A stretch of 64,000 nucleotides of DNA from an uncultured Alphaproteobacteria bacterium. Lineage in GTDB: Bacteria; Pseudomonadota; Alphaproteobacteria; Rs-D84. Shown piece by piece: positions 11,279 through 63,610 of the stretch. The position numbers were made by a program, and so were the translations under genes. The notes below the pieces were generated by a model, which worked only from the letters and a program-made list of their open reading frames with translations, was not told where the DNA came from and did no database searches. Location: the NCBI GenBank assembly GCA_905234185.1, contig CAJOGC010000002.1, forward strand, positions 103,949-167,948, given 5' to 3'. How positions within the stretch are numbered: the stretch's first letter is position 1; every line of letters begins with the position of its first letter.

Positions 11279-12961
11279 ATGAAACAAAAGTCATACATTA
11301 TTGACGATAAACAACTGATGTCCGAATGGGACTGGGATGCCAATGTTGGTTTAGATCCGAAAACATTAACCCGTGGATCAAATAAAAAGGCATGGTGGGT
11401 ATGTTCGGTATGTGGGCATAAATGGTGTGCCGATATACATCATAGAGCCGTAAGAAAACAAGGTTGTTTAAACTGCCGATATGTATATAAAAAACAACTT
11501 GCTTCTATTTTGTCTGAAACACATCCAAAAGTCCTTAAATACTGGGATTTTTCAAAAAATAAATTGATAACCCCCGAAATTGTCAGCCAGAATTCGCGTA
11601 AAAGCGTTTGGTGGCATTGTCCAGATTGTGGCCATGAATGGGAAGAAAAAATAAAAAATCAGGTTAAAAAATTAGTTTGGTGCCCACATTGTAAGAAGGG
11701 AATTAAAGATTTGGCTTCTGTGGAACCAGAACTTGCAAAAGAATGGCATAAAACAAAAAATACTGATGCCCCAGAACATATTTCGTATGCTTCTAACAAA
11801 TATGCATGGTGGAAATGCCAAAAGTGTGGTTACGAATGGAAAGCCAGAATAGCCAACAGGTCAATATTGAAACGGGGGTGTCCTTGTTGTTCTGGTGGTG
11901 CGGTTGTCGTCGGAATAAACGATTTAAAAACAAAGTTTCCGCATATAGCAAAAGAATGGCACCCTACAAAAAACGGTGAACTTTTACCAGAACAAGTCAC
12001 TTCTGGTACAAGAAAGAAAGTTTGGTGGCAATGCCCACTGGGACACGAATACCAAGCAACGGTAGGACACAGGACATCACAAAATGGCACAGGGTGTCCA
12101 ATATGTTATTCAGGACGTCAAACATCATTCGCTGAACAGGCTGTATTCTTTTATGTAAAACAATTATATCCCGACGCACTAAGCAGGTATAAGGCAGACT
12201 TTTTGGGAAAATTTGAATTGGATATTTATATCCCATCAATCAAATATGCGATAGAATACGATGGTGAAGCATGGCATAAAGCGAATAAATTAGAACGCGA
12301 AAAACGAAAGTATCAATTGTGCAAACAGAACGGCATCACATTACTCAGATTACGAGAAAAGGAACCAGAACATGATGCTGAAGTGGCAGATGATATAATT
12401 TGTGTGAAAAATCTATACGAACACAGAAATCTTGAAATGGTATTAAGACGGTTATTGGTGAAATTGAACCCGCAATCGGTAATGCCTGACAACTTTGTTA
12501 ATTTGGCCAGGGATAATCATAAAATCTTGGAATATAAAAAATCGGCCATATCAGAATCATTGATGTCCGTCAGACCAGATATTGCGATGGAATGGCATCC
12601 AACAAAAAATGGTAACCTGTTACCAAGTATGTTTAAAGCAGGTTCTGAACATAAAGTATGGTGGATTTGTCCAAAGTGTGCCACCGAATATCAAACAAGT
12701 ATTGCTCATAGAACAGATAAAAAGGTTCCAACAGGATGCCCAAAGTGTGGCAAAGAGCGAAGTGACTTAGCGAAAAGTGTCGCTGTAAATATGTTAGATT
12801 TGAAAACGAAAAAAGTATTAAAAACATTCGTTTCTGTATCAGATGCATCAAGGCAAATGAAAATCAATTTATCTAACATATGTATGGCTTGCAAAGGCCA
12901 ACGCAACCAAGCTGGTGGGTACGGTTGGGAATATAATTTAAAAATATGCAAAAGAAAATAA
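11279..12961 (+). CDS. multi-zinc-ribbon protein with central DUF559/Vsr-like PD-(D/E)XK nuclease core and C-terminal NUMOD1-like HTH (homing-endonuclease-like)
   Basis: There are five repeats of [EW..KN...P + WW.C..CGH.W......R....CP.C]. The central block FELDIYIPSIKYAIEYDGEAWH...GITLLRLRE resembles the DUF559 core. The tail (FVSVSDASRQMKINLSNICMACKG..NQAGGYGWEY) resembles NUMOD1/IENR-type DNA-binding modules. Confidence 0.75.
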   Translation: MKQKSYIIDDKQLMSEWDWDANVGLDPKTLTRGSNKKAWWVCSVCGHKWCADIHHRAVRKQGCLNCRYVYKKQLASILSETHPKVLKYWDFSKNKLITPEIVSQNSRKSVWWHCPDCGHEWEEKIKNQVKKLVWCPHCKKGIKDLASVEPELAKEWHKTKNTDAPEHISYASNKYAWWKCQKCGYEWKARIANRSILKRGCPCCSGGAVVVGINDLKTKFPHIAKEWHPTKNGELLPEQVTSGTRKKVWWQCPLGHEYQATVGHRTSQNGTGCPICYSGRQTSFAEQAVFFYVKQLYPDALSRYKADFLGKFELDIYIPSIKYAIEYDGEAWHKANKLEREKRKYQLCKQNGITLLRLREKEPEHDAEVADDIICVKNLYEHRNLEMVLRRLLVKLNPQSVMPDNFVNLARDNHKILEYKKSAISESLMSVRPDIAMEWHPTKNGNLLPSMFKAGSEHKVWWICPKCATEYQTSIAHRTDKKVPTGCPKCGKERSDLAKSVAVNMLDLKTKKVLKTFVSVSDASRQMKINLSNICMACKGQRNQAGGYGWEYNLKICKRK

Positions 12962-17489: not shown

Positions 17490-17616
17490 ACTACCCCGCC
17501 ACTTCGTGACACCCCTTCGCTCGCGAAGGGGATTTTACTTTCTGGAATCATAGCATAAATCCCCTTCACTGTGTGAAGGGGTGGATTGCGAACGTTAGTG
17601 AGAAAGACGGGGTAGT
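17490..17616 (+). repeat. PAL-A palindromic element, copy 1 (~127 bp)
   Basis: The terminal inverted repeats are CTACCCCG...CGGGGTAG. The internal hairpins are CCCCTTC..GAAGGGG x2 and a central CTGGAATCAT. Related copies lie at 25701..25835 and 27027..27100. Confidence 0.8.
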
Positions 17617-17618
17617 CC

Positions 17619-17686
17619 CCTGCCCCCTTGTGGGGCGGGATAGATTTATTTACGAACAAAGTGAGTTAATAAATCTTGGGTGGGGG
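17619..17686 (+). repeat. PAL-B element arm (CCTGCCCCC...CTTGGGTGGGGG)
   Basis: It has the same conserved ends as 39430..39501. It forms an inverted pair with 17707..17786 across a 20-nt spacer. Confidence 0.8.
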
Positions 17687-17706
17687 AATTATAGGCGTTC
17701 TGTTTG

Positions 17707-17786
17707 CCCCCACCCAAGAGTCGCTAGTTCACATACGTTCACAAGCCGACTCTGTCCCGCCCCGCACGCTTTGCGCGGGGGCAGGT
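17707..17786 (-). repeat. PAL-B element arm, inverted orientation
   Basis: CCCCCACCCAAGAGTCGC...GACTCTGTCCCGCCCC...GCGCGGGGGCAGG. Its reverse complement aligns along nearly its whole length with 39430..39501. It abuts the pyrG stop codon. Confidence 0.8.
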
Positions 17787-17789
17787 CAA

Positions 17790-19364
17790 TTAATGCTTGT
17801 GTTTCTTTGCTGCGGCGATGAATGCGTTAAACATCGGGTGGCCGGTGTATGGGCTGCTTTGGAACTCTGGATGGAATTGTCCGGCAATAAAGAACGGATG
17901 GTTTTTCAATTCCACTATTTCCGGCAGGCGTCCGTCGGGACTGCGTCCCGAAATTATCATGCCCGCGTCCGCGAATTGCTTTTCGTATTCTATATTCATC
18001 TCGTACCGATGACGGTGCCGTTCCGAAATATGTTCCGCGCCCCAAATACTGTGCGCCAGTGTCCCCGGCGTAATGTCGCACGGATACGCGCCCAATCGCA
18101 ATGTTCCCCCCATATTTTTCGAATCGTGATCTGCCATAATGCCAATCACTGGGGTGCAATTCTTGTTAAACTCGGTCGAATCGGCATCCGCAATGCCCAA
18201 AACATTACGCGCAAATTCAATGACGGCAACCTGCATCCCCAGGCATATACCCATATATGGCACGCCGTTTTCACGCGCATAACCCGCCGCGGCAATTTTA
18301 CCCGCGACCCCGCGCGAACCGAACCCGCCGGGCACCAAGATTCCGTCAACATCGCTACACGTTTCCGGTGTGAATTCTTCGGCATTTATCTTTTTAATCT
18401 TTACATGCACATTGTTTTGGATGCCGGCGTGAAACAGTGCCTCGTTCAGCGATTTATACGCATCCGGCACATGAAAGTATTTTCCCACCATGCCGATTGT
18501 GACCGTCGGCAAATCCGCATCCAGGTAATGTTCAATCCGCCGAAACCTGTCCATATTGCCCGCGGCGTTTGGCAAACCAAAATGGTCGGCAATTATATCA
18601 AAGACATGTTGTGCGTCATATGCCAATGGAATCTTGTAAATATTATCAACATCAATGCCACTAATTACATTCTGCGCCGGCAAATTACAGAACATACCGA
18701 TTTTTGCGCGTTCATCCGGTTCCAACATGCGCGGTGTTCGCACGATTAGCATATCTGCCTGAATCCCGTTTTCAAGTAAGTTCCGCACCGACATTTGTGT
18801 TGGTTTTGTCTTTAATTCGCCACTTTTTTCCAAATATGGTGCCAATGTTAAATGAATAAACATAACATTGCGGCGACCAACATCGTTCGCAAATTGACGG
18901 ATTGATTCCAAAAATATCTTGCCCTCGATATCGCCCACCGTTCCGCCGATTTCACAGACAACGAAATCAGTATCGGTTGGTGCGGAAATATATTCTTTTA
19001 TCTTATTACTGACGTGCGGAATCATTTGCACTGTCGCGCCCAGATAATCGCCGCGTCGTTCCGCATTTAGAACATCCCAATATATGCGCCCACCAGACAC
19101 AGAATCGGCGCGACCCAATTTTGCACCCAAAAACCGTTCGTAATATCCCAGATCCAAGTCCGTTTCAAAACCGTCGTTTGTCACATAAACCTCGCCATGC
19201 TGAAACGGGGACATTGTGCCCGGGTCTATATTCAAATAAGGGTCAAATTTTCGCGCATGAACGGTATATCCGCGCGATTGTAAAAGGGCGCCACAACTTG
19301 CCGCCGCGACGCCCTTGCCTAAACTGGAAACCACACCACCGGTAATGAATATATATTTCGCCAT
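17790..19364 (-). CDS. pyrG: CTP synthase
   Basis: MAKYIFITGGVVSSLGKG and a C-terminal glutamine amidotransferase domain (GICLGMQ, HRHRYE) are present. Confidence 0.95.
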   Translation of the reverse strand: MAKYIFITGGVVSSLGKGVAAASCGALLQSRGYTVHARKFDPYLNIDPGTMSPFQHGEVYVTNDGFETDLDLGYYERFLGAKLGRADSVSGGRIYWDVLNAERRGDYLGATVQMIPHVSNKIKEYISAPTDTDFVVCEIGGTVGDIEGKIFLESIRQFANDVGRRNVMFIHLTLAPYLEKSGELKTKPTQMSVRNLLENGIQADMLIVRTPRMLEPDERAKIGMFCNLPAQNVISGIDVDNIYKIPLAYDAQHVFDIIADHFGLPNAAGNMDRFRRIEHYLDADLPTVTIGMVGKYFHVPDAYKSLNEALFHAGIQNNVHVKIKKINAEEFTPETCSDVDGILVPGGFGSRGVAGKIAAAGYARENGVPYMGICLGMQVAVIEFARNVLGIADADSTEFNKNCTPVIGIMADHDSKNMGGTLRLGAYPCDITPGTLAHSIWGAEHISERHRHRYEMNIEYEKQFADAGMIISGRSPDGRLPEIVELKNHPFFIAGQFHPEFQSSPYTGHPMFNAFIAAAKKHKH

Positions 19365-25700: not shown

Positions 25701-25835
25701 CACTACCCCGCCTCGTTCCACTCGGCACCCTTTCACTGGAGTGAAGGGGAATTAAATTATCTGGAATCATATACCAGGTAATAAAAAATCCCCTTCATTG
25801 TATGAAGGGGTGGACGCGTAGCGGACGGGGTAGTG
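25701..25835 (+). repeat. PAL-A palindromic element, copy 2
   Basis: CACTACCCCG...CGGGGTAGTG termini with internal CCCTTTCACTGGAGTGAAGGGG and CCCCTTCATTGTATGAAGGGG hairpins. Confidence 0.8.
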
Positions 25836-38979: not shown

Positions 38980-39309
38980 TTATTTCTGATTTTTCTCACC
39001 AGCCAACAAAGCCAGTGTTTTTTTATCTTGCGCACTCAGCTGTTTACTAACCTTGTTGCTTCCATCGCAGCGAACACGCAACGCTGTAGCGATTTCATCA
39101 AAATCTTTATCTCCCACCGCGATTTCTTCGCCACCAATTTTCAACCAACGTCCATAGCCACTGTCCCAATCATTAAAAATTTCTATCATAACACGGCCCG
39201 TCGGCGATGTCAGAGTCATCTCTTCATCCCCCATACGCGCGAATCTCTTGGGTGTGTTTTCCGGATTTTTTATTTCGGTAATAATCTGCCCTTTTACATA
39301 TGGATTCAT
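38980..39309 (-). CDS. hypothetical protein, 109 aa
   Basis: The start is moved to ATG 39309 (MNPYVKGQ), which has an AAAGGAG RBS. I recognise no domain. Confidence 0.5.
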   Translation of the reverse strand: MNPYVKGQIITEIKNPENTPKRFARMGDEEMTLTSPTGRVMIEIFNDWDSGYGRWLKIGGEEIAVGDKDFDEIATALRVRCDGSNKVSKQLSAQDKKTLALLAGEKNQK

Positions 39310-39429
39310 AATAAAACTCCTTTGATAATTCACTATATTTACGGAAATAATTGTATCACAAAAAACATAATAATCAAACAAAAACGGATAGGGTTGTTGG
39401 CAGGTATAAAAAAACGCGTAGCGTTTTCG

Positions 39430-39501
39430 CCTGCCCCCATTTTGTGGGGCGGGACAGAGTCGGCTTATGAACGCAGTGAATTAGCGACTCTTGGGTGGGG
39501 G
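39430..39501 (+). repeat. PAL-B element arm flanking the DUF559 gene (left)
   Basis: CCTGCCCCCATTTTGTGGGGCGGGACAGAGTCGGCTTATGAACGCAGTGAATTAGCGACTCTTGGGTGGGGG. It ends 2 nt before the DUF559 stop codon. Confidence 0.8.
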
Positions 39502-39503
39502 CA

Positions 39504-39890
39504 TTATTTTCCCCATCGCGACACAAAAAATTCATTAAAATCCAAATGTTCGTTTATACACATGTGCAATGTATCAACAACCGTTTTCATACCTTGTTTC
39601 GTTAATTCTGCATTTGCAACACGAATAACTTTATAGCCCTGTGATTCTATAAACTCTGTGCGCTTGTTGTCGTATTCAATATTTTCTGCGTGTTGGTTGC
39701 CATCAAGTTCAATAACCAATTTCAATTCATTACACACAAAATCAACATAATATGGACCAAACGGTTGTTGCCGGCGGAACTTTACCCCCAGTTTGTTATT
39801 ATTAATTTGATACCAGAATTTGCGTTCTGGGTCAGACATATTTTTACGCAGGTTTTTTGCACGAATAATGTTTGCTGGGTGATTTGTCAT
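39504..39890 (-). CDS. DUF559 (Vsr-like PD-(D/E)XK) endonuclease-domain protein
   Basis: AKNLRKNMSDPERKFWYQI...KFRRQQPFGPYYVDFVCNELKLVIELDGNQH...YDNKRTEFIESQGYKVIRV is the typical DUF559 sequence. Confidence 0.8.
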   Translation of the reverse strand: MTNHPANIIRAKNLRKNMSDPERKFWYQINNNKLGVKFRRQQPFGPYYVDFVCNELKLVIELDGNQHAENIEYDNKRTEFIESQGYKVIRVANAELTKQGMKTVVDTLHMCINEHLDFNEFFVSRWGK

Positions 39891-39902
39891 AATACAATTT
39901 TA

Positions 39903-39985
39903 CCCCCACCCAAGATTTTCATCAACATTAAAAATGTTGTGAAAATCTGTCCCGCCCCACACGCACAATGTGCGCGGGGGCAGGT
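39903..39985 (-). repeat. PAL-B element arm flanking the DUF559 gene (right, inverted)
   Basis: CCCCCACCCAAGATTTTCATCAACATTAAAAATGTTGTGAAAATCTGTCCCGCCCCACACGCACAATGTGCGCGGGGGCAGG. It starts 12 nt upstream of the DUF559 ATG. On the minus strand it supplies TTGATG-17-TAAAAT. Confidence 0.8.
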
Positions 39986-40010
39986 GAAAAATGCACCAAA
40001 CGGCGCATTT

Positions 40011-40742
40011 TTATTCCCTTTTTGCCCAACGACAAATTACAATCGCGTGGTCGGCGGAATCGGTGCGGATTTTGTGATAAGATGTATTGCCGTCTATTTT
40101 AACATCAACAAATACTTCCGGGGTTTCTGGATTTATTTCTTTCTTATAGTTTAATTCAATACCACACAATTTATGTTCATTGCGATATACATACCCAACA
40201 CTTTCCGTTGCCCATACCGCATAAACCGCATTGTTAATATGCTGATTCACATCGATATCATCGAAACGGCATTTCATAATATGTGTCTTTTCCGCATCAA
40301 AATCGGGAAACTTATCAAATGTCCGATTAAACGCGCGTTCGTTCACCAAAATATCCGCCGGCAATTTATCTTCCAATAACACAGGACGCCGACGTTCCAT
40401 ATCAATCAAAACCCACTGGGACGTCGCGCGAACCATTAACCGATTATCAGACCCACGAATTTCAAAATCGCGCACCGTACGCAAAGCGTCCGATATCGAC
40501 GGCCATGTGGTAAATTGTAATTCCTCGTTCTCGTGTGGCAATTCAACGATATCCACCAAATAATGCGTCACCACCCACGCCAAATTGTTTTCCAACAAGA
40601 ATGTGCGCCCAACGCCTAACAATTCCGCATGCGTGTCCGCCATTGATTGCAATTCGTTCATCAAAATAAGTGGACGAACATTGCCATAGCGGTCACATTG
40701 ATACGCCTGCAACTTTCTAATCTCGGTGTATTTGTCCGCCAT
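40011..40742 (-). CDS. acyl-ACP thioesterase-family protein
   Basis: It shows a double hot-dog pattern (RYGNVRPLILMNELQSMADTHAELLGVG...LAWVVTHY and ...DIDVNQHINNAVY). It overlaps the valS stop by 1 nt. Confidence 0.7.
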   Translation of the reverse strand: MADKYTEIRKLQAYQCDRYGNVRPLILMNELQSMADTHAELLGVGRTFLLENNLAWVVTHYLVDIVELPHENEELQFTTWPSISDALRTVRDFEIRGSDNRLMVRATSQWVLIDMERRRPVLLEDKLPADILVNERAFNRTFDKFPDFDAEKTHIMKCRFDDIDVNQHINNAVYAVWATESVGYVYRNEHKLCGIELNYKKEINPETPEVFVDVKIDGNTSYHKIRTDSADHAIVICRWAKRE

Positions 40743-44145: not shown

Positions 44146-44652
44146 ATGAACAAACCATTAAAAAACTATTTACAAAGAATAATAAAAAACGAATATGTTT
44201 CTGTATATCATGACTATGATGGTCAAAAAACTACATATTCTATTCCATATAACGCATCGCTTGCACCACGATCGGTAAGGTTGACATTGATTCGCGCGCT
44301 GGGGTTGGACTATGACGATGATTTTGATGAAAACAATCCGCAAGACATAGACAAAATGTCATACAACCTGATTGCGGACGAAACCCCATTGTTTTCGTTA
44401 ACATCCGATCATTATATAAACAATCGTGGCACTCTTATGACCCACTATATTTTGGACTTTGATGGTCAGGTACTTACCGAAAAATCCTATAAGTCGGATA
44501 AATTAAGCGGGAAAAATCCGCTAATCCAATTAATGCGCAAATGTTCCGACAAAATAATAGCCCAGGAACAGGCCGCCCAAAAATACAAAATGGAAAAAAT
44601 GTTTGTATCAACAAATATATTTACACAGAATGTGCAACACGACAGAATGTGA
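44146..44652 (+). CDS. hypothetical protein, paralog of the 43277 gene
   Basis: The start is moved to ATG 44146 (MNKPLKNYL) to avoid overlap with the previous gene. It shares an acidic DDDFD(E/D) patch and the C-terminal helix with the first gene. Its 3' end overlaps the convergent comF gene by 32 nt. Confidence 0.5.
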   Translation: MNKPLKNYLQRIIKNEYVSVYHDYDGQKTTYSIPYNASLAPRSVRLTLIRALGLDYDDDFDENNPQDIDKMSYNLIADETPLFSLTSDHYINNRGTLMTHYILDFDGQVLTEKSYKSDKLSGKNPLIQLMRKCSDKIIAQEQAAQKYKMEKMFVSTNIFTQNVQHDRM

Positions 44653-45352
44653 CCCCATATACCGCAACTGCGCCCGCATCCACCAACACACGTCGCAATT
44701 CGTTAAATGTCGCACCCGTTGTCATAACATCATCAACCAATAAAATTTTCTTGCCCTGGATTTTATCGGGTTTACACACGGTAAAAACATTACGAATATT
44801 TCGTGCGCGTTGGGCACTGGTTTTATGTCCCATATTTTCACGATATTCGCGCGACACAGAATCTAAATCCATTTTTACACCAAACACATGTGCAATTGGG
44901 CGCGCCAGTAATGTCGCCTGGTTATATCCACGTTGGAACAATCTGCGCCGTGCAAGTGGAACCGGCATAACTATATCAGGTTCTATATCGACATCACGCA
45001 ACGCCCAAATCATCGCACGCGACATAAAACGTGCATACTGAATGTGTCCCGCATGTTTATATGGCAACATCGCCGCACGTGATGCATCATCATATACACA
45101 TGCCGACCGAATTAAATCCAATTCACATTTTCCAGACGCGCATGTTGGACACATCATATTTGGCCCCATATCAAAACTGGACGCAAACGGGAAACCACAA
45201 TGAATACATTTTGCACCATCAATCCAATTAAACGATGCCCAACAATCAACACATAATTCACCATGCGTTTCGACATGCGCATTACACAACGGACACGATG
45301 GTGGAAAAATAAAATCTATTAAATCCTGCAAATACCGGCGCCCAGATTTCAT
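44621..45352 (-). CDS. comF: ComF-family phosphoribosyltransferase-domain protein
   Basis: The N-terminal Cys clusters (PPSCPLCNA...CVDCW...CIHCG...CPTC) and the PRTase loop (ILLVDDVMTTGAT) are present. The start is moved to ATG 45352. Confidence 0.8.
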   Translation of the reverse strand: MKSGRRYLQDLIDFIFPPSCPLCNAHVETHGELCVDCWASFNWIDGAKCIHCGFPFASSFDMGPNMMCPTCASGKCELDLIRSACVYDDASRAAMLPYKHAGHIQYARFMSRAMIWALRDVDIEPDIVMPVPLARRRLFQRGYNQATLLARPIAHVFGVKMDLDSVSREYRENMGHKTSAQRARNIRNVFTVCKPDKIQGKKILLVDDVMTTGATFNELRRVLVDAGAVAVYGVTFCRVAHSV

Positions 45353-45359
45353 CGCGCAA

Positions 45360-46661
45360 TCACCAAGACATATTTTTATATGTTTTTCTGTTAACACTGT
45401 CGCCGAACATATTGCGTTGCTGTTGTGTCATTGATTCAAACTGCTCATTCGAAATAATCCGCAATACAAACGCATCTTCACTGCGTGACGACAACACCGG
45501 CAGCACCCGATGTTCTGCGACACCCGTATCGCGTAATACTTGTTCGATAATTGCCAATCTGCGTGCCGCCAACTTGCGGGCATCGGCATTGTTTGTCACA
45601 CTTTCTGGAATTGCAACCTGAATTGCGCGTTTCGGATTACTGACCACAATGGATGCATATTCGGTTAACAAAGTATAATTATCGCGTGACAACGCAGAGT
45701 CTTCATTACGGAAATGTATTTTTATTTCCAACGGACGAATACCACCCGATTCAGACAAATCACGAACGGCGGTAAATCCTTCTATATTTCTGGACATGTC
45801 ACTTGCCACATCGAAACGATCATCTATTTGGAAAGTTGAAAGATGTTTGTTTTCCGACAAAAATGTCTTACGAAATGCGCGACGCAATTCGGATGGTGAC
45901 ATTTTTGTCATATCATTACGAACCGAACTTATCGTCGGCGAAGTGTTTTTTTCGACGCTGCGCACAATAACATCGTTATTGTCCATCGGCACAACCAGGC
46001 GCGACAACTTTACCGGTGTACTCTGTACATTTTCTTTGCGCGATTCTTGGGCAATCGTATTATCATTTACAACCGGCATCATGGGTTCGGCAACAATCTG
46101 GGACGGACGCGCAATGATACTTTCATCGGCCCTGCGTTGTAATTCGGCAATCCGTGCAATTTGATTATCAAATTCACTTAAATTCCCATGCACAGCACCA
46201 GATTCATCATCACGCACCGCAACGGTGCGAACCGACATATTCATATCAAGGTTTTCTTCGGGTAAATCAAATTCTGGTGTTAACACCGAAAACTCTTCGG
46301 GGCTTGGCATACGCAACGGCATATCACTTTTTACCCACAAATCAGAACTGGGGCGATGCGGAATCAACACATCGGCAACATTTGCGATTTTTTCGCCCGC
46401 ATCAACAGATGGGCGCGTTGTACTTGCCGTGCGTGACGCAATATTTCGTGTATTTGTTTTTTGTGACGCCACGGCGGTCCGCCTTGTCACGGGGGCAACA
46501 GTGACGTTTGGCGCAACAGAAACGGGACCGTATCCCGATTCCCCAAACGCAGCACGTGCCGACACAGCAGTCGAAGCAACATTAACAACCGGTAAACGGG
46601 CATCCCCCCATGCGGGAATTACCACAAAAACCGCCAACAAAGACGCAGTAATTCGATGCAT
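45360..46661 (-). CDS. secreted hypothetical protein with degenerate OmpA/MotB-like C-terminal region
   Basis: A signal peptide is present (LLAVFVVIPAWG). The C-terminus (IKIHFRNEDSALSRDNYTLL...LAARRLAIIEQVLRDTGV) loosely fits the OmpA_C pattern. Confidence 0.55.
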   Translation of the reverse strand: MHRITASLLAVFVVIPAWGDARLPVVNVASTAVSARAAFGESGYGPVSVAPNVTVAPVTRRTAVASQKTNTRNIASRTASTTRPSVDAGEKIANVADVLIPHRPSSDLWVKSDMPLRMPSPEEFSVLTPEFDLPEENLDMNMSVRTVAVRDDESGAVHGNLSEFDNQIARIAELQRRADESIIARPSQIVAEPMMPVVNDNTIAQESRKENVQSTPVKLSRLVVPMDNNDVIVRSVEKNTSPTISSVRNDMTKMSPSELRRAFRKTFLSENKHLSTFQIDDRFDVASDMSRNIEGFTAVRDLSESGGIRPLEIKIHFRNEDSALSRDNYTLLTEYASIVVSNPKRAIQVAIPESVTNNADARKLAARRLAIIEQVLRDTGVAEHRVLPVLSSRSEDAFVLRIISNEQFESMTQQQRNMFGDSVNRKTYKNMSW

Positions 46662-60767: not shown

Positions 60768-62831
60768 TTATAAAACCGTTACGAAAGATTTCATAACATT
60801 TTTCATACCGTGTCGTCCAAATGCAACGGTCAACACATCGCCGTTTTCGGCAATTACCGTTCCATGCCCCAACTCTTTATGTTCCACCAACTTACCAACC
60901 ATTGTTGTCGGCATGACACGCGGTGTGACACTACGTGGCATCGATGCATACGAAGTACGCGTTGGACGGGCACCACCCTGGAAATCCAGATATCGTCCGT
61001 CCATTTCCGCAATAAACCGCGAAGGAGAATTATATTGACGCGACCCAAAAACCATTCGCGACATGGCATTCGAAATCACCGCACGTCGACGTGCGCGCGT
61101 AATCGCAACATATGCCAACCGGCGTTCTTCTTCCAATCCACCTTCGTCTATGGACTTTTCATTTGGGAATGCCCCCTCTTCCCACGCGGGCAAAAATACA
61201 GAATCAAACTCTAGCCCTTTGGCCGCGTGTATAGTCATAATACTGACAGCGTTTTTATCGGCCATGATTTTATCGTCTTCGTCATCATCGGTCGTCATTA
61301 ATGCCGCCTGCTCTAAAAACTCTGGCAAAGTGTCATATTTTGCAATTACATCTGTGATAAGTTCACGCACATTGTCCAAACGTTCGGCACTATCAGAATC
61401 CTTGGAATCGCGCCACATTTGTAAATATCCAGATTTTTCCAAAATATTCTGGGCGGCGTCACGCGGGGACATATCCATCCAGTCGAAATTAAATGCATCT
61501 AGAAAAGCGTCTGCATTTTCGCGTTGTTTAGCACTAAGTTGCGCAATCCTTAATGCCGCCATTAAATTTGGACCCGCCACCCGCAATTTATCGATTGCGG
61601 ATGCACCGAATCCGCGTCGTGGTTTTCCGATAACGCGTTGAAACGAAATATCATCAAATGGGTATACCAACAAACGCAGATATGCAATCGCATCACGTAT
61701 TTCCATCCGGTCATAGAATTTAGTCGCCCCGATTAAACGGTATGGAATGCCACGACGCGTAAATTCTTCTTCAAAAAGACGGCTAAAGCTACCTGCGCGA
61801 ATTAATATTGCATTTCTGGAAAAATCCCCTTCGCGCATAATTGCATCTGCAATAACACGCACTTCATCTAAATCTGATGGCACGGTTAAAACATATACCG
61901 GTTCACCCGATACATCTGAATGGACACTGCGTAAATCTTTGCCCAAACGCCCATTATTGTGACGAATTAAAGAGTTTGCCGCCCCAAGAATATTTTGTGT
62001 GCTGCGATAATTTGTTTCCAGTCGAATAATTTTGGCCTTTGGATAAGACTTATCAAATTCAAGAATATTTTTTATCTCGGCCCCGCGCCAAGAGTATATC
62101 GATTGGTCATCATCACCGACACAGCAAATATTCGGACTATCTGTCCCCCGGGTTAACATTTTCAGCAATTGCATTTGCGCGGCATTGGTATCTTGGAACT
62201 CATCGACCAAGATATACCTAAATTGATGTTCATAACGCGCCAAAATTTCGGGCTGGGCGTTAAAAAGTTGCAACACGCGCAAGATTATATCACCGAAATC
62301 AATCGCCCCCAAACGAGCCAATTCTGCATTATATGCAACAAACATCTTGTCAGTATTATCAAGCGCGCCCAATCCCCGGTCTTTAATAGCCGAGAATTGT
62401 TCGACATAGTCAGCGGGTGTTTTGGTTGTCTTTCCCATGTCCACCAAAAGCGACTTTACGACCGCCTTTTGATCATCTTCACCAAAGATAATAAAATCCT
62501 GACGCAGTCCAGCGGCGGCGGCATTGGCACGCAAAATGCGCAAGCATATCGAGTGAAATGTTCCGCACCATAAATCGCGCGCATTCCACCCCGCACCACT
62601 TTCCGCCAGCGCGACAATACGATTTTTCATTTCATTTGCGGCCTTGTTGGTAAAAGTTAACGCCAACACCTGCCATGGTTTGGCCAGACCACTGTTCAGA
62701 ATGTATGCAACGCGTGTTGTTAAAACGCGTGTTTTTCCAGTTCCGGCCCCAGACAGCACTAAAACCGGTCCTTCGGTCGTTGTGACCGCATCTAATTGCT
62801 CTGCATTAAGATTTGCTAGCATTGATTCCAT
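60768..62831 (-). CDS. uvrD: UvrD/Rep-family ATP-dependent DNA helicase
   Basis: Walker A (GAGTGKT), DEFQDTN, the YRS.Q.I block, and the C-terminal ...VAITRARR... are present. Confidence 0.9.
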   Translation of the reverse strand: MESMLANLNAEQLDAVTTTEGPVLVLSGAGTGKTRVLTTRVAYILNSGLAKPWQVLALTFTNKAANEMKNRIVALAESGAGWNARDLWCGTFHSICLRILRANAAAAGLRQDFIIFGEDDQKAVVKSLLVDMGKTTKTPADYVEQFSAIKDRGLGALDNTDKMFVAYNAELARLGAIDFGDIILRVLQLFNAQPEILARYEHQFRYILVDEFQDTNAAQMQLLKMLTRGTDSPNICCVGDDDQSIYSWRGAEIKNILEFDKSYPKAKIIRLETNYRSTQNILGAANSLIRHNNGRLGKDLRSVHSDVSGEPVYVLTVPSDLDEVRVIADAIMREGDFSRNAILIRAGSFSRLFEEEFTRRGIPYRLIGATKFYDRMEIRDAIAYLRLLVYPFDDISFQRVIGKPRRGFGASAIDKLRVAGPNLMAALRIAQLSAKQRENADAFLDAFNFDWMDMSPRDAAQNILEKSGYLQMWRDSKDSDSAERLDNVRELITDVIAKYDTLPEFLEQAALMTTDDDEDDKIMADKNAVSIMTIHAAKGLEFDSVFLPAWEEGAFPNEKSIDEGGLEEERRLAYVAITRARRRAVISNAMSRMVFGSRQYNSPSRFIAEMDGRYLDFQGGARPTRTSYASMPRSVTPRVMPTTMVGKLVEHKELGHGTVIAENGDVLTVAFGRHGMKNVMKSFVTVL

Positions 62832-62896
62832 CTTTTATTTATAATAGACTAAACTTTACGGAAAGACAATTCAACACATCTTTTTATGAGCGGATT

Positions 62897-63574
62897 ATGA
62901 AAAGAATCATTTGTTTTGATATTGAAACAACAGGGCTGGAATACATGCGCGGCGACCGCTGCATTGAAATTGGCGCGGTTGAAATTGCGGACGGAAAAAT
63001 TACAGAAAACACTTTCCATGAATATATAAATCCAGACGGGAAAATTATTCCACCCGATTCGTACATGGTTCATAAAATTTCTAATGCGTTTCTAGAAGAC
63101 AAACCAAAAATGTCGGTAATCGCACCGCGATTTCTTGAATTTATTGGTGACGCGCCGATTGTCGCACATAACGGATTGGATTTTGACTTTAAATTTATGA
63201 ATCATGAACTGGAAATGCTTGGGTTGCCAATAATCCCACGACAACAACAACTAGATTCCATTGTAATCGCGCGCAATCGTGTATTTGGCCCCAAAAGTTA
63301 TTCGCTGGACGCCCTTGCGAAATGGTATGGGATTTCACTAACTGCCCGCGCAGATGCGCACGGCGCCCTTATTGATGCCGAAATTTTAGCCAAGGTGTTT
63401 TTGGAACTTGAAAACACCGCCCCCGCACCGGATATAAACGATATAATTGCGGACCAGCATGCGGCTTTTTTATCGCACCCTAAAATAGGTGCTGATTTCC
63501 CACGTCGCACATTTGCCGTTCACGATGAAGAAATGGCTAACCACAACGCACTTATGGCAAAAATAGCTGGCTAA
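62897..63574 (+). CDS. dnaQ: DNA polymerase III subunit epsilon (3'-5' exonuclease)
   Basis: Exo I (ICFDIETTGL), Exo II (VAHNGLDFDFKF) and Exo III (HGALIDAEILA) are present. The start is moved to ATG 62897. Confidence 0.9.
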   Translation: MKRIICFDIETTGLEYMRGDRCIEIGAVEIADGKITENTFHEYINPDGKIIPPDSYMVHKISNAFLEDKPKMSVIAPRFLEFIGDAPIVAHNGLDFDFKFMNHELEMLGLPIIPRQQQLDSIVIARNRVFGPKSYSLDALAKWYGISLTARADAHGALIDAEILAKVFLELENTAPAPDINDIIADQHAAFLSHPKIGADFPRRTFAVHDEEMANHNALMAKIAG

Positions 63575-63584
63575 ATAAGTTCAA

Positions 63585-63610
63585 TAAAAAATCCCGCGTT
63601 TGCGGGATTT
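63585..63610. terminator. bidirectional terminator between dnaQ and rpmA
   Basis: AAAAAATCCCGCgtttGCGGGATTT. Confidence 0.7.

Follow-up and report, generated by a model that had tools for sequence, protein, structure and literature searches.

Positions 39430-39985 of the window examined here, a 64,000-nucleotide stretch of an uncultured alphaproteobacterium of the Rs-D84 lineage (GenBank assembly GCA_905234185.1, contig CAJOGC010000002.1, positions 103,949 to 167,948) that sits within a 183-kb metagenome scaffold, contain the gene for a small nuclease of the DUF559 family lying between two inverted copies of a repeat. The gene (39504..39890, minus strand) encodes a 128-aa, YcjD-like PD-(D/E)xK endonuclease of the Vsr superfamily. 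An earlier note on this DNA had placed the gene between inverted arms, and its coordinates proved exact: between the inner ends of the two arms (CTTGGGTGGGGG and CCCCCACCCAAG) and the gene there are 2 nt on the stop-codon side (39502-39503) and 12 nt on the start-codon side (39891-39902). The gene together with its two flanking units is referred to below as the cassette.

A Pfam scan of the encoded protein returned DUF559 (PF04480; 117.6 bits against a cutoff of 20.6, E = 3e-34, residues 10-107) plus a weak match to MTES_1575, and no transposase domain. The protein matched the solved DUF559 structure PDB 3HRL with E = 1e-20, or 3e-26 with the family profile, and the family profile also matched the nuclease domain of PvuRts1I (E = 1.8e-4) and, weakly, I-Bth0305I (3R3P; E = 0.026). 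Residues D50, E61, D63, and H67 are invariant across eight family members of 43-91% identity and were assigned as putative active-site acidic and histidine residues. Against PRK09767, the NCBIfam equivalog for YcjD, the score of 81.5 bits fell below the cutoff of 218; judged by every sequence test, the protein is a member of DUF559 but not a YcjD orthologue. Comparison of the gene with its relatives at loci L071 and L090 gave ratios of non-synonymous to synonymous substitution (dN/dS) of 0.065 (dS 0.86) and 0.116 (dS 0.90), respectively, and the gene is under strong purifying selection. No match to Vsr (PF03852) was found in the protein at E <= 0.01, and no cytosine-5 methyltransferase adjoins the gene, whose neighbours encode an acyl-ACP thioesterase and a 109-aa protein; a Vsr very-short-patch repair system was ruled out on these two grounds. 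Membership in a defence system was likewise rejected, PADLOC giving marginal matches only (E ~1e-3), as was a phage origin, with DUF559 matches in just 2 of 50,697 phage records. The gene for the 109-aa protein (38980-39309, minus strand), which lies downstream of the cassette, has no Pfam or PADLOC match.

The two arms (39430-39501 on the plus strand and 39903-39984/5 on the minus strand) have three conserved blocks in common, CCTGCCCC(C), GGGGCGGGACAGA, and TCTTGGGTGGGGG, while the segments separating these blocks differ between left and right arm. Read on the gene strand, the upstream unit (39903..39985, minus strand) folds with z = -6.0 and consists of a pyrimidine arm CCTGCCCC (39984-39977), an 18-nt loop or mini-hairpin (39976-39959), a purine arm GGGGCGGG (39958-39951), a variable hairpin, hairpin 2 (39945-39916), and a G-rich tail GGGTGGGGG that ends at 39903. 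The downstream unit (39430..39501, plus strand) has the same order, with CCTGCCCC at 39430-39437, the loop at 39438-39445, GGGGCGGG at 39446-39453 followed by ACAGA, hairpin 2 at 39459-39488, and then TCT and TGGGTGGGGG at 39492-39501; its inverted repeat reaches outward as far as 39424. An ORF-less pair reported by the earlier note at 17619..17786 was also found again (ORF, open reading frame). Its left unit (17619..17686, plus strand) and right unit (17707..17786, minus strand) are separated by a 20-nt spacer (17687..17706) in the position that the DUF559 ORF takes in the gene-bearing pair, and the right unit reaches to within 4 nt of the CTP synthase stop codon (gene at 17790-19364, minus strand). 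These four are the only copies of the unit in the window. The 13-mer block GGGGCGGGACAGA, with up to two mismatches, has five matches in the window against 0.65 expected, a number reached in none of 100 shuffles, and the 12-mer CTTGGGTGGGGG has four exact occurrences. A scan of the window for known RNA families at the Rfam gathering thresholds gave two tRNAs only, the same two that were found by ARAGORN.

The earlier note had further proposed that the right arm supplies a promoter. The match is indeed present, TTGATG-17-TAAAAT at 39897..39925 on the minus strand (9 of 12 consensus positions), with the -35 hexamer in hairpin 2; the -10 hexamer follows the G-rich tail and has its end 6 nt ahead of the ATG. 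The upstream unit has an identical stretch of 65 nt, which begins with GGGGCGGGA and runs past the tail to TAAAATT, in the window and at loci L071, L090, L024, and L061. This stretch includes both hexamers at invariant spacing and always 6 nt before the ATG, despite a dS of ~0.87. The candidate promoter would give a leaderless mRNA, although the comparative support holds for this subfamily only; other subfamilies are without the -35 hexamer because it lies in the variable hairpin. A simple scan of 39300-40100 gave no terminator-like site. Separate hairpins with T-runs serve both neighbouring genes and the cassette and lie outside the units, and a terminator role of the units was rejected for this reason.

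Fold and class of the repeat unit

The arms, termed PAL-B in the earlier note, had been taken there for simple terminal inverted repeats; what the comparison of 157 units from related genomes points to instead are folded units of the BoxC/PIT/TM intrastrand-triplex type. The layout of the unit is 5'-CCTGCCCC, loop, GGGGCGGGA, YAGA, variable hairpin, TCT, TGGGTGGGG(G)-3', with two near-invariant blocks, GGGGCGGGATAGA in 124 and TCTTGGGTGGGG in 138 of the 157 units. The pyrimidine arm CCTGCCCC was found in 136 of the 149 units with a locatable arm and pairs with GGGGCGGG via a conserved T.G to form hairpin 1. Hairpin 2 is represented by 145 distinct sequences, in which the outer positions 1-6 pair in 82-99% with two to four pair types per position, compared with just 41-78% after partner shuffles, while position 7 is a T.T mismatch in 114 of the 145. 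Because of this covariation and the conserved mismatches, it appears to be the folded single strand that is constrained, and not the duplex sequence alone.

In the tail GGGTGGGG the purine arm GGGGCGGG recurs as its mirror, a T facing the C, and the order CCTGCCCC / GGGGCGGG / GGGTGGGG was found in all four window units. The T lies opposite the C:G inversion, where a T.C:G triplet would probably be tolerated. Motifs of the BoxC/PIT/TM class have been catalogued since 1992 in hundreds of genomes, and were reportedly described by Bergler in 1992 and by Hoyne and Maher in 2000 and 2002. By definition the motif has three blocks, namely a pyrimidine arm, a purine arm, and a G-rich mirror of the latter (PMC4666352), and it was first noticed in the E. 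coli envM (fabI) sequence (reference 46 of PMC4666352). In the window unit the first loop measures 5-18 nt and the second linker, which holds the covarying hairpin, 38-40 nt, versus loops of 1-6 nt in ITxF and 0-10 nt in Hoyne et al. (PMC4666352). Judged by its sequence, the repeat is a long-linker variant of the BoxC/PIT/TM motif, having the three blocks in order but not the loop lengths; it is termed a variant because its second linker, with its hairpin, is 38-40 nt long versus the published 1-6 nt. The folding tool used here models hairpins only, and the triplex in the window unit is a prediction from sequence.

Published work on E. coli gives this assignment its context. K-12 has 23 copies of the motif, five of them arranged as inverted doublets, and the motif forms a stable triplex in vitro as single-stranded DNA, as seen by circular dichroism and nuclear magnetic resonance; neither a flanking-gene pattern, nor a link to mobile elements, nor promoter or terminator activity was found for it, its function is not known, and TM loci are unstable, being more variable than control intergenic sites (PMC4666352). 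The window repeat resembles these motifs in its three blocks, its intergenic and multi-copy occurrence, its conserved stem mismatch, and its frequent arrangement as inverted doublets with the tails facing each other. It differs in having a C within the purine arm, to which a T in the tail corresponds, and in that published work describes neither an associated gene nor a mobile-element link, the link to DUF559 being added here.

A second, different triplex-type repeat (CCCCTTCR, loop, YGAAGGGG, mirror tail GGGGTAGT) also occurs in the window, at 17490-17531 (minus strand), 17561-17616 (plus strand), and 25790-25834 (plus strand). The first two copies lie directly beside the ORF-less PAL-B pair, making 17490-17786 a four-motif cluster, and the linker in one copy of this repeat resembles the loop of hairpin 2.

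Gene-bearing and ORF-less doublets in related genomes

Species-representative genomes were scanned with the two conserved blocks as the pattern, which yielded 84 loci with the 157 units described above, nearly all of them from about a dozen gut-associated alphaproteobacterial metagenome-assembled genomes (MAGs) from termite gut, rumen, and human gut, labelled Rickettsiales, Alphaproteobacteria, or Candidatus Enterousia. The units overwhelmingly form convergent pairs whose tails face each other, and the lengths of the spacers between them are bimodal. Spacers of 15-56 nt, found in 52 independent pairs, contain no ORF; those of 397-423 nt, found in six independent pairs, contain a DUF559 ORF in six out of six, encoding proteins 43-91% identical to the window protein; and a single pair at locus L004 has a spacer of 284 nt with other small repeats. 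A decayed gene was considered for this last spacer and rejected, no DUF559 relic being present among its small palindromes. The geometry of the cassette is tight, with the ATG 7-30 nt past the upstream unit and the stop codon 0-10 nt ahead of the downstream unit. The window neighbours (thioesterase, ValS, L34, and GyrA) were present in none of the other loci with ~400-nt spacers. Units greatly outnumber the gene within a genome, with at least 76 units to one gene, at least 23 to two, and at least 20 to one in the available sequence of three MAGs.

The short spacers fall into genome-specific sequence families, of 21, 27, and 49 nt in one MAG and of 20 and 47 nt in another, and hairpin modules recur in different arms, implying that the copies are mosaics. 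The 47-nt spacer family matches the leader plus the tail of the cassette at L010 in the same MAG; an ORF-less doublet is thus equivalent to a cassette without its ORF and, put the other way round, a cassette to a doublet with an ORF in its A/T-rich centre. In the 27-nt-spacer family of Gx485_bin8 (L005, L013, L026, L028, L035, L045, L062, and L064), inverted symmetry extends ~30 nt past the units, with ends of the form GCAGAGC...GCTCCCTCC next to the unit and GCAGAGC...GCTCTGC, so that these are ~220-bp elements with a third, variable outer segment. Identification of the doublets as miniature inverted-repeat transposable elements or insertion sequences was rejected: the arms are inverted, but eight aligned full-length copies show no target-site duplication at their ends, and the cassette protein has no transposase domain.

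Occupancy of a site was found to differ between related genomes, a point on which the earlier note had staked its proposal. At 45353..45360 the window site is unoccupied and the genes 44621-45397 and 45360-46661 are contiguous, while in EPI_MAG_00286 (L008) the orthologues of these two genes are split by ~1 kb of DNA that contains a helix-turn-helix (HTH) gene and a DUF559 cassette. A second gene end exists in three states. After the gene 62813-63574 the window has only a plain terminator hairpin (63575..63610). In RUG13292 (L059) the same gene end is followed at 55 nt by a DUF559 cassette, and in Gx481_bin12 (L038) at 370 nt by an ORF-less doublet. In the population of the window, the ORF-less pair is kept by all contigs with an identical CTP synthase gene.

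Several further features of these loci were recorded. The HTH gene of L008 (1222-1527, minus strand) encodes a 101-aa, XRE-like protein and lies directly beside the cassette, in the segment that is missing from the window site. Other small palindromic repeats occur within or beside the doublets at L004 450-740 and L038 3840-4180, for example GTCATCCCGTGGCTTGACCACGGGA and a 'gatttcagatttacggatttaagatttgg' tandem-like motif, and these two intergenic sites gather several repeat families. Single PAL-B units were seen on bins outside the Alphaproteobacteria, at L006 3957-4016 (Bacteroidia bacterium MS495-25) and at ~7400 of L086 (Spirochaetaceae Kf353_bin19), reflecting either binning contamination or transfer. 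The proteins fall into two subgroups, GFQFRRQ (cassettes L010, L016, L055, L070, L008, L097, and L099) versus GVKFRRQ (the window, L071, L030, and L090-L096), which can occur within one MAG (L010 versus L016). GFQFRRQ tends to go with 7-8-nt c...g loops in hairpin 1, on a stem lengthened by a C-G pair, and GVKFRRQ mostly with 5-6-nt hairpin 1 loops such as cttgt, a match that hints at co-variation of protein and repeat.

DUF559 genes and triplex-type motifs in other bacteria

Metagenome contigs were also searched protein-first, which avoids the bias of a search that starts from the repeat. Among close relatives of the window protein (44-83% identity), 11 of 11 genes abut units; the majority sit within a pair, and a few have a whole pair immediately upstream, some of them with a unit downstream as well. 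Together with the six gene-bearing pairs described above, this bears out the nuclease-inside-inverted-repeats architecture as conserved rather than a one-off. A further 69 DUF559 genes, more distant (40-55% identity), came from soils, sediments, and waters and are without the window's particular repeat. Flanking inverted repeats were nevertheless present at 33 of the 60 that could be tested, versus ~1 in 120 neighbouring genes, with BoxC-like arms such as CCCTCTCCCGCAAGCGGGAGAGGG...GGGTGAGGG and, in some cases, a covarying second hairpin in the linker like that of the window unit. A strict motif finder, which demands arms of 8 nt that pair perfectly and a tail that mirrors perfectly and so has the mirror rule built in by construction, detected a triplex-type motif in the flank window of 58 of the 69 genes versus 3 of 80 other genes from these loci (p = 4e-26), at densities of 2.29 hits per kb near DUF559 genes and 0.057 elsewhere. 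With redundancy removed at 90% identity, a motif is adjacent in 43 of 52 clusters. The expectation of the earlier note that other DUF559 genes would also have inverted repeats around them thus holds strikingly for the small YcjD-like subfamily.

The usual orientation of the motif at the distant genes is the same as in the window, with tails toward the gene, and the tail tracks the purine arm across motif types, GGAGAAGG occurring with GGATGAGG, GGGGAAGG with GGATGGGG, and GGGAGGGG with GGGGTGGG. Where motifs are asymmetric, the mirror rule was favoured over a direct-repeat rule by 13:2, 15:4, 15:10, and 14:5, a control that is only partly discriminating, common motifs such as GGGAGAGGG being mirror-symmetric. 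In a published survey, 'DUF559 domain-containing protein' was enriched 14-fold among predicted targets of programmed inversion, which are genes bracketed by inverted repeats (PMC9881135).

Cultured organisms gave a similar, if less uniform, picture. In Sinorhizobium meliloti the motif forms part of inverted arms of ~100 nt, Deinococcus proteolyticus and Azospirillum lipoferum also have the motif at the flanks of the gene, and Neisseria gonorrhoeae has a motif-like element upstream of its DUF559 gene. E. coli K-12 ycjD is a partial case, with a degenerate motif hairpin across the stop codon and TM_ECO no. 9 located 168 nt from that codon; downstream of ycjD (NC_000913 1351204-1351760, L170; also L171) lies a relic of the last ~50 nt of a ycjD-like gene, followed by TM_ECO no. 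9. Of 5426 complete E. coli genomes, 2048 (38%) are without the gene, and in these the eef resistance-nodulation-division efflux island fills the sapF-fabI interval instead, with a breakpoint ~50 nt from the motif. That ycjD offers a clean comparison of filled and empty sites was rejected, the whole interval being replaced by the efflux island and no simple insertion polymorphism being involved.

On a plasmid of Synechocystis sp. B12 (L173 1358-2054), a DUF559 gene lies between two pieces of what is apparently one DUF1156 gene, and the annotated DUF559 coding sequence runs into DUF1156-like sequence; on pAQ6 of Picosynechococcus PCC 7002 (L176), the DUF559 gene adjoins a DUF1156 gene. In these two organisms DUF559 may have inserted into a conserved gene.

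The nuclease, its candidate substrate, and rival explanations

The nuclease gene and the folded repeats form a conserved, co-diverging module. We consider the chances about even that the window locus belongs, as the member that bears the gene, to a family of inverted doublets built from a folded G/C-rich repeat, and that DUF559 is the cognate, structure-recognising nuclease of that repeat, an arrangement like REP/RAYT with an unrelated enzyme and an unrelated repeat. In such a scheme the unit would become single-stranded during replication or transcription and fold into hairpin 1 with its conserved T.G, hairpin 2 with its conserved T.T, and the G-rich tail laid on the purine arm. The nuclease would then bind the folded unit and nick in or beside the fold, and the break would be repaired from another copy, the ~70-nt arms serving as homology. 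Such repair could homogenise the spacers, shuffle the hairpin modules, and copy the ORF into doublets or remove it from them. The T.G and T.T mismatches would be plausible recognition features for a relative of Vsr, the T:G-mismatch endonuclease, and the protein would recognise the folded unit. Since purine-motif triplexes form in DNA and not in RNA (PMC4666352, introduction), a DNA nuclease acting on transiently single-stranded DNA would fit this scheme.

Among known systems, the likeness is to REP/REPIN/RAYT (TnpA-REP, 'REPtron'), where a low-copy nuclease gene under purifying selection is flanked by inverted short folded repeats, the repeat stems have conserved imperfections, and the repeat is dispersed as many ORF-less inverted doublets with short spacers. 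The enzymes differ, a Vsr-like PD-(D/E)xK protein in the window versus the HUH Y1 transposase that is RAYT, and so do the repeats: the window unit is 70-90 nt long, has two hairpins and a G-rich mirror tail, and starts (T-rich)CCTGCCCC, while REP is a palindrome of 20-40 nt with a GTAG/CGTC tag. E. coli YcjD, the N. gonorrhoeae protein of structure 3HRL, and Caulobacter VsrA belong to the same Pfam family and have the same fold as the window protein; VsrA differs in being linked to a methyltransferase, which is absent at the window locus. To our knowledge no substrate has been demonstrated for any of these three proteins, neither cleavage nor joining chemistry has been described for DUF559, and the small stand-alone members of this very large bacterial family are without an assigned function. 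Our literature search, whose coverage excluded subscription journals, returned no prior report linking DUF559 or ycjD to these repeats and, as far as searched, the link between DUF559 and BoxC/PIT/TM is new.

Several observations weigh against a cognate nuclease that spreads with its repeat. A lone PD-(D/E)xK nuclease cannot transpose, which leaves no route for doublets to new sites, and no target-site duplication was seen in an alignment of eight full-length copies of the 27-nt-spacer family. The window's own population showed no empty/filled polymorphism, all contigs with an identical thioesterase gene carrying the cassette or breaking at it, and no precise empty site was found; the filled site of L008 holds the extra HTH gene as well. 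At L016, L055, L092, and L094 the gene lies beside a complete pair and not inside one. The protein-first sample rests on two peptide patterns that lead to one small YcjD-like DUF559 subfamily, and the mirror rule inherent in the motif finder, together with its partly discriminating control, counts on the same side. Flanking motifs in Deinococcus proteolyticus and Azospirillum lipoferum have their tails outward, and Picosynechococcus PCC 7002 has direct repeats on both sides of its DUF559 gene. In E. coli, the number of extra TM matches is similar with and without the gene (1-5 places in ycjD-less genomes versus 2-5), and the repeats therefore persist without it, at least over that timescale, while triplex formation in vivo went undetected for the E. 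coli motif (PMC4666352). The earlier note had suggested that DUF559 genes may be the autonomous form of a small mobile or homing element. The gene-in-repeat architecture, the excess of ORF-less derivatives over gene-bearing pairs, and the differing occupancy between related genomes speak in part for this description; target-site duplications in the 27-nt-spacer family and polymorphism within the population were not seen.

Some of these same observations would suit a homing-endonuclease parasite, that is, a free-standing gene targeting the centre of the doublet and copied in by repair, with the repeats spreading by other means and only the gene moving. The ORF in the centre of the pair, the arms that supply homology, the 47-nt spacer equal to leader plus tail of the L010 cassette, the persistence of repeats in ycjD-less E. 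coli, and the apparently split DUF1156 gene of Synechocystis B12 are all in keeping with it, as are the weak profile matches to a PHROG 'homing endonuclease' family and to I-Bth0305I, a Vsr-like intron homing endonuclease. The likeness to Vsr-fold enzymes of that kind extends to a small nuclease of the same superfamily, a gene at the centre of a sequence known also in gene-free form, and occupancy that differs between genomes; however, the window gene is neither in an intron or intein nor beside a conserved single-copy target, its 'target' would be a dispersed repeat, and its family is almost absent from phages. We regard this explanation as unlikely, given that efficient homing should fill many sites but only one or two are filled per MAG versus dozens of empty doublets, that long-term purifying selection (dN/dS 0.07-0.12 at dS 0.87) is unlike the usual decay cycle of homing genes, that the gene also occurs beside complete pairs, and that an association across phyla with differing motif sequences would require repeated co-divergence of enzyme and target. 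A host housekeeping nuclease, a Vsr-like repair or structure-processing enzyme that would remove or nick hairpin or triplex obstacles, or mismatches, to the cell's advantage, found among repeats through regulation or recombination-prone loci and with no role in their spread, would agree with the strong purifying selection, with the T.G and T.T mismatches conserved in the units, features of a type that Vsr-like enzymes read, with the perfect conservation of the upstream unit and its promoter-like hexamers in this subfamily, and with the report that VsrA, a DUF559 protein of Caulobacter, behaves like a Vsr-type endonuclease and is connected with cytosine methylation and the SOS response (PMC12907096). 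It too strikes us as improbable: the gene is dispensable and patchy, as in the 38% of E. coli genomes without it, its genomic context changes between close relatives, the window has no adjacent cytosine methyltransferase, E. coli PIT elements were without promoter or terminator activity (PMC4666352), and regulation would leave unexplained both the motif on either flank and the ORF-less doublets that resemble cassette ends.

A further possibility is that the units are expression signals and nothing else, an upstream promoter or 5' element and a downstream terminator or stabiliser, with the ORF-less copies as ordinary terminator-like repeats. The promoter-like hexamers, invariant in five loci, and the position of the ORF-less pair at 17619-17786 just past the stop codon of a gene would fit, but we judge this very unlikely. 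The simple scan showed no terminator-like site, hairpins with T-runs lie outside the units, the -35 hexamer sits in the variable hairpin and is absent in other subfamilies, a promoter needs neither covariation nor conserved mismatches nor a mirror tail, and the E. coli elements lacked both activities (PMC4666352). That the doublets are fragile hotspots for any foreign DNA, with DUF559 as a frequent passenger, seems the least credible account. TM loci in E. coli are indeed more variable than control intergenic sites (PMC4666352), and the 284-nt spacer of L004 has other small repeats in place of DUF559, but every pair with a spacer of ~400 nt contains DUF559 and nothing else, the association is found in 11 of 11 close and 58 of 69 distant relatives versus 3 of 80 controls, and random capture is hard to reconcile with the tight, constant distances to start and stop codons.

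If, on the other hand, DUF559 is the cognate nuclease of the folded repeat, the relation could extend beyond the window. We propose, tentatively and with more doubt than conviction, that small YcjD-like DUF559 proteins are widespread structure-guided nucleases whose substrate would be the folded BoxC/PIT/TM repeat, and that gene and repeat would together make up a selfish or domesticated replicator, the triplex-motif counterpart of REPIN/RAYT, which would explain both the spread and the instability of the repeats. The pairing of DUF559 with BoxC/PIT/TM spans phyla and gives each of two long-standing unknowns a candidate partner, tying a repeat whose origin has gone unexplained since the 1990s to an uncharacterised nuclease family. 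Should the REP/RAYT analogy be true, bacterial chromosomes would contain a second, independently evolved replicator made of a repeat plus a nuclease with different chemistry, and possibly a natural protein reader of non-B DNA. A first bench test is feasible with one protein, E. coli YcjD, and one oligonucleotide, TM_ECO.

Elsewhere in the window, the earlier note had reported a second DUF559-type core in the protein encoded at 11279. This domain is in fact DUF2726 (29.4 bits, above its cutoff), with DUF559 matching below threshold (E = 0.035), and no triplex-type repeats flank the gene. DUF2726 belongs to the same Vsr-like clade as DUF559. The gene (11279-12961, plus strand) encodes a 560-aa protein that combines the DUF2726 nuclease domain with five DUF4379 treble-clef zinc fingers and NUMOD1/I-HmuI-like motifs, which are typical of homing endonucleases.

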